From NCBI RefSeq assembly GCF_056746865.1, contig NZ_CM163382.1: a stretch of 64,000 nucleotides of DNA; one strand, 5' to 3'. Position 1 is the first letter of the stretch; each line of letters starts with the position of its first letter. This document shows positions 6,620 through 9,600 of the stretch, piece after piece. Position numbers: made by a program.

Positions 6620-9600
6620 TGAAAGTCCGCCCGGTTCGCCGGGCATCTTCTCATCAGAAGCGATAATCCACTGCCATAAAGTAACGACGTCCGTCTTCGT
6701 TATAGCTGTAGTCGTCACGACTGAGATCCTTGTCGCCAAGGTTCAGCACGCCTGCGCGCAGTTTGACGTCTTTAGTCACCTGCCAGGCCGCGCCGGTATT
6801 CCAGATGGTATAACCGCCAGGTGTTTTAGCCGTCGCGCTGTCGGCTCGTTTCTGCCCGGTATAGTGACCAGAAACATAGAATGACCAGTCTTCCAGCGCC
6901 AGCGGTTTCCAGTCCAGCGTACCGTTAGCGGTATGGAACGGCAGATCGGATAGCGGTTTGTTTTCGCCGTTGCTGACATCACGACCATCGTTGTAGGTGT
7001 AGTTGAGTGACAGTTTCCATTCATCGTTGAACGGAATTTTCAGTTCGGTTTCCACGCCCTGAATACGAGCTTTGTTAACGTTGTAGTAGCTAAATACCGG
7101 CACACCGTTCGCTGTAAAACCAACAAAGTTTTGGTAGCCCGGTGCAGCATTGACGTCAGACGTACGGCTGATGCTGATACGATCTTTCACATCGTTACGG
7201 AAAACGGTAACGCTGGATTCAACCCCTTCCAGCCAGCCTTCTTCACCCATGTAGTAAAGCCCCAGCTCCCAACTTTCGCTGGTTTCTGGTTTCAGATCCG
7301 GGCTACCCACAATCTTACATGCGCCACGGCAGGAATTGCTCGTCCAGTCAGGGCTAAGTTGCAACAGAGAAGGTGCTTTAAATGCCGTCGCCCAGCCCCC
7401 TTTCACCGTTACGGTGTCGGTGGCGTTATAAACCAGGTAGGCACGCGGACTCCAGTGTTCACCGTAGGTTTCGTGATCGTCCATACGCACGCCGGTCGTC
7501 AGCGCCAGCGGCTCGAAGATCCGCCATTCATCTTCCACAAACAGCGCGTACTGGCTGGCAGACGTTTTGGAGCTGGTTCCCCCGGTCAGGTTCACCGCAT
7601 CGCTAAGTTTGTCGTGACGCCATTCACCGCCAACCGTGAGAAACTGATTAATCGCCGTCAGCGGCAACGTGTATTTGCCGTCGACCGTATTGCTTTCGGA
7701 AGTTATCGGGCTGCTGTTGCCAGGGTTTTTGTTCTCGACTTTCTCACCGTAGTATTTCAGTTCGCTGGTGCCGTAATCCCAACGCCCATTATGGCTGACG
7801 GAGTAGTTCTAGCGTTCCAGGCGGTTTTTGTCCAGCGAGTCGGAATCACGATCCTGACGGTCGAAACCGTATCCGGCAGTAAAATCGTGATTTTGATTCG
7901 GTGTCCAGGCAAATTCGACATTGCCGTCGCGGCTGGAGAATCCTTCAATACGCGGCGTATCTCCGGTATCGGTGGTCGTTGAGTTTTGCGGGTCATCCTT
8001 TTCACGTTTTGCCAGGCTGCCGTAAGCTTTCATTCCCAGCACACCATCAATTAATGGTCCACTGGTAAAGAACTGACCGTTATAGGTATCACCGCGATCG
8101 CGATGTTCCTGAATGGTGGTATCGACGGTAACGGTACCCGACCATTTCTGACCGATTTTTTTGGTGATGATATTCACTACACCGCCGAGCGCATCGGAAC
8201 CGTACAGCGACGACATCGGGCCACGGACCACTTCAATACGTTCGATGGAATCGACCGGGATCCAGTTCAGATCGAAATCATTGTGGCGGAAGACGGCATT
8301 GCGGGAGTTAACGCGTTTACCGTCGACAAGAATCAGGGTGTAGCTGCTGTCCAGACCACGAATACTAACGCCCTTACGGTTATCCCCTTCGTTCGTCAGT
8401 TGTACGCCAGGCACTTCTTTGAGGACATCCTTCAGATTCTGTACCGGTTTTCGCTGCAGGTCTTCCTGGGTAATGACGCTGATACTGGCGGGTGCATCTT
8501 TAAGGTTTTGTTCAACGGAAGATGCAGTGACAACCATCGTTTCGCCATCATCATCGACCGCTAACACAGGCCATGCACAAGAAATAGCGGACAAACACAG
8601 CCCGACCCGTACGAAAGGGTTCAACCTAAACATTCCATATCTCCATGAGGTAACTACGAAAATAAAATGGGTTATCGCTCACATCTTCTTCACGTCCCCT
8701 TGCGTACGGCAGCATCGCGGTGGACTTATTTGTATGCAGGTGATCATCCCAGAAAGCCGGAACAGCCTCTGATTTGTCAGCCTTTTTTGATTGCGGCGTA
8801 ACGATAATGCAAACGATAACAATTATCAATCCAAATGATAAATTTTATATCCGCATGATTTGTCAGGGAAATGGAATTGAAAAAGCCCTCTCGGTTGAGA
8901 GGGCTTAGCAAGGAAGGGAGGAAACTTATTTCTTATCGTTCTGCGGGAACTTCATTTCGCTGTAACGTACGAAGTGTGTTCCTTTAATCAGCTTGTAGCC
9001 GAACCAAATAATCAGGAACAGCGGGATACCAATATACGTTGCCGCTACGCCGCCCCAGTCAATGGTATCTTTCAGGAACGCTTCGTAGTTCTGGCCTAAA
9101 GTGATAATCAGACACAGAATGAATGCGAAGATCGGCCCCAGTGGGAAGAAACCTGAACGGTACGGCAGATCGTTAATGTCGTGTCCCTGCAATACGTAAC
9201 CGCGACGGAAGCGATAGTGGCTAATGGCAATCCCCAGCCAGGCGATAAAACCGGTCATCCCGGAGGTGTTCAGCAGCCACAGGTATACCGTCTGGTTGCC
9301 AAACATGGAGGTCAGGAAGCACAGACCGGCAATCACCGTCGTCGCATACAGCGCATTACGCGGCACGCCACCACGCGACAGTTTAGCGAAAATGCGCGGC
9401 GCTTTACCGTCACACGCCAGGGTGTACAGCATACGAGTAGACGCATACATACCGGAGTTACCCGCTGACAGCACCGCCGTCAGAATAACTGCATTCATCA
9501 CCGCCGCCGCAGAGAGCAGACCCGCGTGCTGGAACACCAGGGTGAACGGACTAACGCTGATGTCTTTAACATCGTTACGCAGCAGGCTCGGATCGGTGTA

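Follow-up and report, generated by a model that had tools for sequence, protein, structure and literature searches.

CirA is a TonB-dependent outer-membrane receptor for catecholate siderophore products. The classical colicin I-resistant cir mutants are spontaneous, bacteriocin-resistant cirA mutants. In lacI, the amber hotspots are Dcm sites, at which 5-methylcytosine is deaminated. Cir is the receptor for microcin V and colicin Ia (PMC12511343). In Escherichia coli O157:H7 PA2, spontaneous mutants resistant to Mcc1229 carry their mutations in cirA (PMC8853679). In NDM-5 E. coli, premature stops in cirA are among the contributors to cefiderocol resistance; the alleles described include one from ST167 NDM-5 ("truncated at 109 aa") and one from ST405 ("truncated at 621 aa") (PMC9241927). 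Deletion of cirA raises the cefiderocol MIC 64-fold in an NDM-5 strain but leaves that of ATCC 25922 unchanged at 0.125 ug/mL, and high cefiderocol MICs need NDM or PBP3 insertions (YRIN/YRIK) (PMC9241927).

The window analysed here is a stretch of 64,000 nucleotides (64 kb) from contig NZ_CM163382.1 of RefSeq assembly GCF_056746865.1. It contains a cirA locus with the following features.

6654 to 8633, minus strand: cirA pseudogene, a 659-codon allele plus its natural TGA stop, with a single amber interruption
7809 to 7811, minus strand: premature TAG at codon 275 (Q275*), coding-strand C823T, which is G>A at 7811 on the plus strand
7812 to 8633, minus strand: translatable N-terminal fragment of 274 aa, comprising signal peptide, plug domain and the first part of the beta-barrel
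6654 to 7808, minus strand: untranslated C-terminal remnant, 384 stop-free codons plus the natural TGA, ending in AVDYRF
8634 to 8925, minus strand: cirA upstream/promoter region, unchanged relative to relatives with intact cirA

Direct translation of the minus strand from 8633 gives 274 codons, one TAG and a further 384 codons without a stop, which end at 6654 in ...AVDYRF*. This is the same frame that the initial annotation had read. The DNA around the stop is CTG GAA CGC TAG AAC TAC TCC, and the T of the TAG is at 7811. Exactly one in-frame stop precedes the natural end and there are no frameshifts. In the ORF listing, the gene appears as two pieces, 7809..8633 (274 aa, ATG start) and 6654..7667 (337 aa, internal TTG start). 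The second piece is the longest ORF inside the C-terminal remnant and is without the N-terminal signal-peptide region of cirA. The interrupted frame matches the annotated intact gene (WP_000489223.1) at 1,979 of 1,980 positions and is therefore not a chance ORF pattern. As the receptor-coding frame is interrupted by the TAG at codon 275, the gene is classed as a cirA pseudogene and not as a functional member. Fur regulation is established for cirA in general, and in the window putative Fur-box-like matches occur at 8809-8833, where a motif scan finds agreement with GATAATGATAATCATTATC at 13 of 19 positions, a weak consensus match. The 8634..8925 interval has no sequence differences from that of L010, a relative with intact cirA.

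The identity of the gene as cirA, also proposed at first reading, is supported by both halves of the frame. In a profile search, they align in collinear order with the NCBIfam equivalog NF007478 (CirA), the N-terminal half over profile positions 1-274 (604 bits) and the C-terminal half over positions 276-663 (816.7 bits, which alone exceeds the curated cut-off of 745). The next-best family has less than half the NF007478 score. With Gln in place of the stop, the protein is nearly identical to experimentally solved CirA: residues 26-659 give 1436.6 bits (E=0) against chain A of 2HDF/2HDI, "Colicin I receptor", and also align to 9NN6, which has the same name. The frame has the architecture of a TonB-dependent receptor, with an N-terminal plug (Pfam Plug PF07715, residues 44-152, E 2.8e-33) and a C-terminal beta-barrel (PF00593, TonB_dep_Rec_b-barrel, residues 217-632, E 1.3e-63). 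The gene order yeiE-lysP-cirA-yeiG-folE, with cirA between lysP and yeiG, is the order in annotated genomes. Relatives annotate intact cirA (WP_000489223.1) at the corresponding coordinates, and genome searches find cirA as a single-copy gene in nearly all E. coli. The allele is four residues shorter than that of K-12; K-12 residues T508, G509, R513 and R514 are absent. Loss of the bacteriocin-contact residue R490 from the shorter allele was considered and rejected, as R116, R436 and R490 are all present (precursor numbering, PMC12511343).

The state of codon 275 was determined with allele-specific 55-mers in 5,426 complete E. coli genomes. The C allele is present in 5,418 of these and the T allele in four; thus CAG is ancestral, and the CAG-to-TAG change initially inferred agrees with the codon found in orthologs. 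Across cirA and 200-300 bp of flanking DNA (2,480 bp), a single base differs from the intact gene of strain 118UI, namely nt 823 (T versus C). The same change, 7811 G>A, is the sole cirA difference from 118UI, FDAARGOS_1290, CFSAN061770 and EC31. Over approximately 50 kb, FDAARGOS_1290, CFSAN061770, EC31 and EF5-18-41 each differ from the window by 2-4 substitutions. The only changes private to the window relative to these four are 7811 G>A and one IS3-family insertion (rihB). The remaining substitution differences are each private to one relative, except yejF T478, which is common to the window and three relatives. Neither the promoter nor the distal cirA ORF shows decay relative to intact relatives. 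These sequence comparisons strongly support Q275* as a recent point mutation rather than old decay. The description of the stop as "one recent point mutation" is thus well supported for this lineage, but the mutation is not unique, having arisen on at least four other backgrounds (see below).

The close relatives were isolated from cheese, duck and chicken, sources in which cefiderocol exposure is implausible. Co-selection of yejB and yejF substitutions with the cirA stop (all are bacteriocin-uptake genes) was also considered. It was rejected because YejB I350 is ancestral in a population-wide test, T350 being private to FDAARGOS_1290, and because YejF T478 occurs in three relatives whose cirA is intact.

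An identical cirA allele, TAG included, occurs in two other public assemblies, ENA contig ERZ21879008 NODE_2 (coverage of about 67 according to its name) and Logan ERR11476726. Over 18.6 kb, ERZ21879008 NODE_2 matches the window at 100% identity but is without the IS, so it represents a separate genome state. In public contigs, gene callers report a 274-aa product with Plug only, and in contigs L014 and L015 a 337-aa TonB_dep_Rec_b-barrel product is called separately. Contigs L016-L018 were rejected as Q275* carriers; nt 823 is C in these contigs, which end at that point, and their retrieval was an artefact of exact-protein lookup.

The Q275* allele is also present in SCU-106, 537-20, A1.S1.18 and GN4143, on four different cirA backgrounds. 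RefSeq/PGAP labels cirA in these four genomes as a pseudogene ("internal stop"). Their alleles are 1,992 nt long (663 codons) and lie 11-23 substitutions from one another. They are separated from the 1,980-nt allele of the window by 21-29 substitutions and a 12-nt indel, and are therefore independent events and not members of the same clone. No mention of cirA Q275* was found in the literature searched.

Nonsense codons across cirA were scanned with locally validated queries made up of 25-nt flanks and 3-nt mismatch spacers. The resulting counts are lower bounds, as a carrier escapes detection when SNPs flank the site on both sides. A transition-type nonsense codon in cirA is present in at least 127 of the 5,426 genomes (2.3%) and at 26 or more of the 55 possible sites. 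The neighbouring controls lysP, fruA and radD together contain such a codon in one genome over 109 sites. This is an enrichment of approximately 250-fold per site when genomes are counted as independent; many are clonal, so the enrichment p-values are descriptive only. The only other enriched gene among those tested is yejA (19 genomes over 69 sites). Two genomes carry two nonsense codons each in cirA. Three of the 55 cirA sites qualify as Dcm sites (Q56, W243-TAG and W617-TAG), and their alleles are present in 35 (Q56*), 21 (W243*) and 5 (W617*) genomes. When the Dcm sites are left out, cirA is still enriched approximately 138-fold per site. The true nonsense hotspots of cirA are the Dcm (CCWGG) sites Q56* and W243*. 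In the window, the mutated base lies in the context ACGC[C]AGAA and is not the inner C of CCWGG on either strand. A Dcm hotspot was accordingly rejected as the cause of C823T, the context being CCAGA and not CCWGG. The excess of cirA nonsense codons suggests either selection or unusual tolerance, and positive selection for cirA loss is likely, though not proven.

The preferred reading, with a probability of roughly 0.87, is that Q275* is a cirA loss-of-function allele of recent origin, made by one C-to-T transition, with loss of the receptor and probable bacteriocin-linked selection. In a lineage in which all close relatives have intact cirA, the transition converted Gln275 CAG to amber TAG. 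Translation would then go past the signal peptide and the plug but no further than about the first fifth of the barrel. The TAG is placed 58 residues inside the Pfam barrel match and cuts off 384 codons. The initial annotation placed the truncation after the plug region; the Plug match (44-152) is retained, but the 274-aa fragment also includes the barrel start, as the barrel match begins at residue 217. Since only the plug and approximately one fifth of the barrel are left, the product should be non-functional. The fragment would be unable to form the 22-strand barrel, and for this reason the receptor is expected to be absent from the outer membrane. The remaining 384 codons are without the start and the signal-peptide region of cirA. 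Loss of CirA would close the entry port of colicin Ia/Ib, microcin V, Mcc1229, siderophore-microcins and siderophore-cephalosporins, and FepA and Fiu would continue catecholate uptake. The Q275* allele was probably selected, and is probably maintained, through loss of this entry port for bacteriocins and siderophore-cephalosporins.

Several other explanations would change part of this reading. It is extremely improbable that the genome really has CAG and that the T arose as an error of base calling or polishing. Such errors can take the form of a single-base substitution. However, the TAG occurs on the identical allele in the two independent assemblies, which come from different pipelines (ENA SPAdes-style and Logan) and make a sequencing error unlikely. 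The absence of any further private substitution in the approximately 50 kb compared with the four relatives indicates a clean assembly, and the same change is found in four unrelated complete genomes. It is just as hard to credit that the gene still works, with the amber read through by a suppressor tRNA encoded elsewhere or by near-cognate tRNA-Gln. The 384 codons beyond the stop remain undamaged and the ancestral residue is Gln, so insertion of Gln by supE-type suppression or near-cognate decoding would regenerate exactly wild-type CirA. Against this, a very young mutation would in any case leave the distal ORF intact, and no suppressor tRNA is present in the 64-kb window, where the only tRNA is tRNA-Pro(GGG). 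Efficient amber suppressors are rare in natural isolates, and basal UAG read-through is low. The proviso of the initial annotation, that translation would be rescued only in an amber-suppressor background, is a reasonable one. A related and very doubtful proposal is that the amber acts as a leaky, reversible "dimmer", with trace wild-type CirA made via tRNA-Gln and one T-to-C reversion sufficient to restore the gene. If so, recurrent CAG-to-TAG alleles (for example Q275*, with five origins) could be a favoured means of lowering bacteriocin sensitivity that keeps some catecholate uptake and allows easy return. A cause specific to the site is also quite improbable. Codon 275 would then be a mutational hotspot, or truncation exactly there would be specially favoured, for example through an activity of the 274-aa plug-plus-stub fragment itself. 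The five independent origins of C823T (the window lineage and four others) fit this explanation, as does the count of four genomes where non-Dcm sites average approximately 1.3 (single-site Poisson P(>=4) = 0.043). However, the mutated base is outside a Dcm CCWGG site, and although approximately two of the 52 non-Dcm sites are expected by chance to reach four or more genomes, approximately seven do. The non-Dcm counts are nine genomes for Q60*, seven for Q78*, six for W124/W164, at least six for W370, five for W243-TGA and four each for Q216* and Q275*, so Q275 is only about 8th-10th in rank. The stops in cirA range from codon 21 to codon 617, and no particular truncation point is needed. Judged from these genome counts, Q275* recurs, but codon 275 is no special hotspot.

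An alternative with more weight, though still unlikely, is neutral decay. The stop would be real and recent but fixed by drift, in a niche where CirA is redundant with FepA and Fiu, and no toxin, phage or drug would have selected Q275*. The nonsense enrichment is equally expected under relaxed constraint, with cirA dispensable in many niches. Nonsense alleles of cirA occur at many different sites and in many lineages, the commonest of them at the Dcm deamination hotspots, so mutation supply shapes which alleles appear. The two genomes with double nonsense codons point to continuing decay, and ATCC 25922 tolerates deletion of cirA with unchanged MICs (PMC9241927). However, the control genes, which include two Dcm nonsense sites in lysP, contain a single affected genome over nearly twice as many sites as cirA, and the enrichment of cirA persists without its Dcm sites. 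The other enriched gene, yejA, likewise serves in the uptake of a bacteriocin (microcin C). The single private substitution of the window in approximately 50 kb is a cirA nonsense change, an outcome open to 209 of approximately 150,000 possible substitutions, in a window that was chosen for its stop. In the laboratory, microcin selection directly gives cirA null mutants (PMC8853679). It is most likely that cirA is repeatedly knocked out in nature because bacterial toxins enter through the receptor.

Under the preferred reading of Q275* as a young loss-of-function allele, the strain-level prediction is loss of the receptor for colicin Ia/Ib and microcin V/Mcc1229. Resistance to these bacteriocins is expected from the sequence and is a safer prediction than cefiderocol resistance (PMC8853679, PMC12511343). 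The initial annotation had predicted resistance to cefiderocol as well; this agrees with the 64-fold rise of the MIC in the NDM-5 strain but not with the unchanged MIC of ATCC 25922 (PMC9241927), and resistance to this drug would be predicted only where co-determinants such as NDM are also present. One cefiderocol uptake route would be gone, which would be clinically relevant only with NDM-type enzymes or PBP3 insertions. More generally, cirA is among the more frequently inactivated chromosomal genes of E. coli, and its commonest inactive alleles come from Dcm methylation sites. For cefiderocol surveillance, this means that cirA truncations pre-exist widely without drug exposure.

Compared with the known systems, the window resembles the lacI Dcm amber hotspots in its outcome, the same C-to-T, CAG-to-TAG change. 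The lacI mechanism also operates in cirA, at Q56, W243 and W617. In contrast, codon 275 sits in CGCCAGAA, which is not CCWGG, so Dcm deamination fails to explain the mutation in the window. The cirA pseudogenes of SCU-106, 537-20, A1.S1.18 and GN4143 are identical to the window in nucleotide change and codon. The ST167 and ST405 stops of PMC9241927 affect the same gene with the same class of lesion, arose without known cefiderocol exposure and are likewise expected to leave the outer membrane without CirA. The window differs from them in the codon affected (275) and in having close relatives from cheese, duck and chicken. The Mcc1229-resistant mutants (PMC8853679) and the classical cir mutants are cirA nulls, as the window allele is expected to be, and were obtained because CirA is the toxin receptor. 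The mutants of PMC8853679 are laboratory-selected and consist of frameshifts and a promoter deletion, whereas the window allele is a natural nonsense substitution. Mcc1229 selection nevertheless gives a direct mechanism by which alleles like Q275* could be selected. Q275* in the window is a known kind of event, one more instance of the recurrent loss of cirA.

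Minus-strand translation of positions 6654-8633 of the window gives 274 codons, one stop and then 384 more codons. The DNA at the stop reads CTG GAA CGC TAG AAC TAC TCC, and the T of the TAG codon is at position 7811. The ORF listing contains one reading frame in each half of the gene:

7809..8633, minus strand, N-terminal ORF of 274 aa
6654..7667, minus strand, internal ORF in the remnant, with a TTG start

The translation, the DNA and the ORF listing agree with the coordinates, codon counts and motifs that the initial annotation reported for a split cirA. The gene identity also holds. 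The NCBIfam equivalog NF007478 (catecholate siderophore receptor CirA) is matched collinearly by both halves (N-half to profile 1-274, C-half to profile 276-663). With Gln in place of the stop, the protein can be aligned over its full length with the solved 'Colicin I receptor' structures 2HDF/2HDI and 9NN6. The genes on either side, lysP and yeiG, are the same as in annotated E. coli genomes. The Pfam Plug domain covers residues 44-152 and the TonB-dependent barrel match covers residues 217-632. Because of these positions relative to the stop, the translatable 274-aa product would end roughly one fifth of the way into the barrel, after a complete signal peptide and plug. The truncation had been placed after the plug; the plug is indeed complete, but this first part of the barrel also lies inside the fragment. 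Judging from the known fold, such a fragment could not close the 22-strand barrel. The longest ORF in the remnant, with its internal TTG start, lacks the N-terminal signal-peptide region of the gene.

The window carries a cirA of the 1,980-nt allele family; approximately 545 genomes are 99% or more identical to it (megablast). At window positions ~7101-7115 (minus strand, cirA codons 507-511), the encoded protein has four residues fewer than the K-12/2HDF type FVGF-ETGANGRRI-PVF. The missing residues are T508, G509, R513 and R514 (K-12 numbering), of which R513 is a predicted minor microcin V interface (PMC12511343). The key contacts R116, R436 and R490 are kept.

In a megablast search of 5,426 complete E. 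coli genomes, cirA with its flanks has a match in 5,425. The top rows are printed as '100.0%' with 4,575 bits, which is one mismatch, as confirmed by base comparison. Alleles were counted with 55-mers that have the variable base at position 28, so that a match at this base is needed for the 28-base word of megablast to seed. At codon 275, four genomes have the T allele (TAG) and 5,418 the C allele (CAG). This distribution points to CAG as the ancestral codon and confirms the CAG to TAG change proposed earlier; across other E. coli cirA sequences, the Gln codon CAG is found at this position in 5,418 of 5,426. In strain 118UI, cirA is annotated as intact and differs from the window only at coding nucleotide 823.

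An assembly error is an unlikely source of the TAG codon. The exact 274-aa product is present in public assemblies (exact-sequence look-up). The ENA contig ERZ21879008 NODE_2 (286.6 kb, coverage ~67 from the contig name) and the Logan contig ERR11476726_3417 both carry TAG on a cirA allele identical to that of the window. The base at 7811 is thus reproduced by independent assembly pipelines. Three further contigs (L016-L018) were rejected as additional carriers; they have the wild-type C at nucleotide 823 and merely end at this codon, an artefact of exact-sequence searching.

The window was compared base by base with four close relatives, over ~48.5-50 kb each.

Close relatives, length compared and substitutions relative to the window
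FDAARGOS_1290 (human, USA): 49.8 kb, 3
CFSAN061770 (raw-milk cheese, Egypt): ~50 kb, 2
EC31 (meat duck, China): ~50 kb, 2
EF5-18-41 (chicken, Laos): ~48.5 kb, 4

Besides 7811, each substitution is private to one relative, except yejF T478 (window 40905), where the window state is common to three of the four. The yejB I350 state is ancestral by a population-wide check (~5,418 genomes). A 1,310-bp insertion in the window is missing from all four relatives:

16254-17563, plus strand, IS3-family insertion sequence, 1,310 bp, inside rihB
16108-16253 and 17564-18362, minus strand, remnants of the interrupted ribosylpyrimidine nucleosidase gene rihB

In ~50 kb, G>A at 7811 and the rihB insertion are therefore the only changes peculiar to the window lineage. 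Neither the cirA promoter region nor the 384 codons distal to the stop differ from those of the relatives. This pattern is the mark of a very young mutation rather than of decay, in agreement with the annotation's view of a recent event. ERZ21879008 NODE_2 matches the window at 100% identity over 18.6 kb, yet its rihB is intact. At least one other genome state therefore has the stop, and the stop is older than the insertion.

The insertion sequence is bounded by terminal inverted repeats TGAACCGCCCCGG... and by a 3-bp duplication of the target (CAC). Its two transposase ORFs overlap and encode 108 and 296 aa (NCBIfam NF033516), and we take the element to resemble IS629. It is missing from the four relatives and from the ENA contig sharing the cirA stop, so it is the newest change in the window. 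YejF is the ATPase of the microcin C importer, and its A478T change (codon 478; yejF at 39474-41063, plus strand) lies six residues N-terminal to the conserved His in the LFISHDL motif. Only three of the 5,426 complete genomes (CFSAN061770, EC31 and EF5-18-41), all with intact cirA, share the change, which is a useful lineage marker without a link to the cirA event. In the proL-type tRNA-Pro(GGG) (window 49386-49462), position 49402 is T in EC31 and C in the window; the T is private to EC31, and the two other relatives compared there (FDAARGOS_1290 and CFSAN061770) share the window base.

The four complete genomes with Q275* (SCU-106, 537-20, A1.S1.18 and GN4143) are all RefSeq-flagged 'internal stop' and all contain a 1,992-nt cirA allele. 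Among themselves they show 11-23 substitutions; 21-29 substitutions and a 12-nt indel separate them from the window. Since Q275* occurs on divergent alleles, the same mutation arose at least five times. The 55 cirA transition-nonsense sites were searched with composite queries, each site centred in a 51-mer flanked by three deliberate mismatches; a match requires the mutant base, and the design was validated locally. A transition-nonsense codon in cirA is found in at least 127 (2.3%) of the 5,426 genomes.

Transition-nonsense codons in cirA and genomes carrying them
Q56*: 35, Dcm site, window ~8466-8468
W243* (TAG): 21, Dcm site, window ~7905-7907
Q60*: 9
Q78*: 7
W124* or W164* jointly: 6
W370*: at least 6
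W617* (TAG): 5, Dcm site, window ~6783-6785
W243* (TGA): 5
Q275*: 4
Q216*: 4
~16 more sites: 1-3 each

At exactly three sites of the 55 (Q56, W243-TAG and W617-TAG), the base that mutates is the inner cytosine of a Dcm CCWGG site; by number of genomes, these sites come first, second and about fifth to seventh. Classical amber hotspots are known in lacI, and the Dcm-site alleles look like their natural-population counterpart. The window cirA is wild-type at codons 56, 243 and 617. A site-specific cause at codon 275 is not supported: the codon sits in CGCCAGAA, which holds no Dcm site, ranks about 8th-10th, and with four genomes is unremarkable among the 52 non-Dcm sites (mean ~1.3 genomes per site). 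Many cirA nulls recur, and Q275* is one of these rather than a special hotspot. Within the 1,980-nt family, more independent nonsense alleles occur in 3347558 and MS20675 (W124* or W164*) and in 181.1 (Q260*), so cirA loss is recurrent even in this sub-lineage. NZ_OZ546925.1 and NZ_OZ546911.1 each have two cirA nonsense codons, Q56* and W243*, both at Dcm sites; these records are cases of continued decay after a first hit, in contrast to the single fresh lesion of the window.

The same nonsense scan was applied to four more window genes (178 sites, 9 at Dcm sites).

Genomes hit in the nonsense scan
cirA: 55 sites, 127 genomes
yejA: 69 sites, 19 genomes, 13 at Dcm sites
fruA: 19 sites, 1 genome
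lysP: 42 sites, 0 genomes
radD: 48 sites, 0 genomes

Per site, cirA is enriched ~250-fold over lysP, fruA and radD together, and ~138-fold without its Dcm sites. Fisher p-values are descriptive only because the genomes are not independent, but the difference remains large. Apart from cirA, only yejA is enriched, which suggests recurrent loss of a second bacteriocin-uptake gene in E. coli and a preferential loss of bacteriocin uptake routes. The yejA product serves the microcin C importer as its periplasmic binding protein, and the gene is intact in the window (35538-37352, plus strand). Relaxed constraint may also account for this pattern of losses. Neutral drift is a real alternative for the persistence of the window allele. 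If selection is responsible, bacteriocins or phage are more plausible agents than drugs because the relatives come from food-animal sources. Functional rescue by an amber suppressor elsewhere in the genome is a possible but improbable reading. The sole tRNA in the 64-kb window is tRNA-Pro(GGG).

Colicins Ia/Ib and microcin V use CirA as their receptor (PMC12511343 and established knowledge), as does Mcc1229, and spontaneous Mcc1229-resistant mutants have cirA frameshifts or a promoter deletion (PMC8853679). Cefiderocol-resistant NDM-5 E. coli never exposed to the drug frequently have premature cirA stops, and cirA deletion raises the cefiderocol MIC from 1 to 64 ug/mL in an NDM-5 strain, whereas ATCC 25922 stays at 0.125 ug/mL (PMC9241927). 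Given this difference, resistance to CirA-dependent bacteriocins is the safest prediction for the window strain, and cefiderocol resistance would be expected only with co-determinants. The observation and core interpretation of the initial annotation are right overall, and the lesion matters in practice for bacteriocin sensitivity and for cefiderocol surveillance. Q275* in the window is a new, independently arisen case of a well-known kind of lesion.
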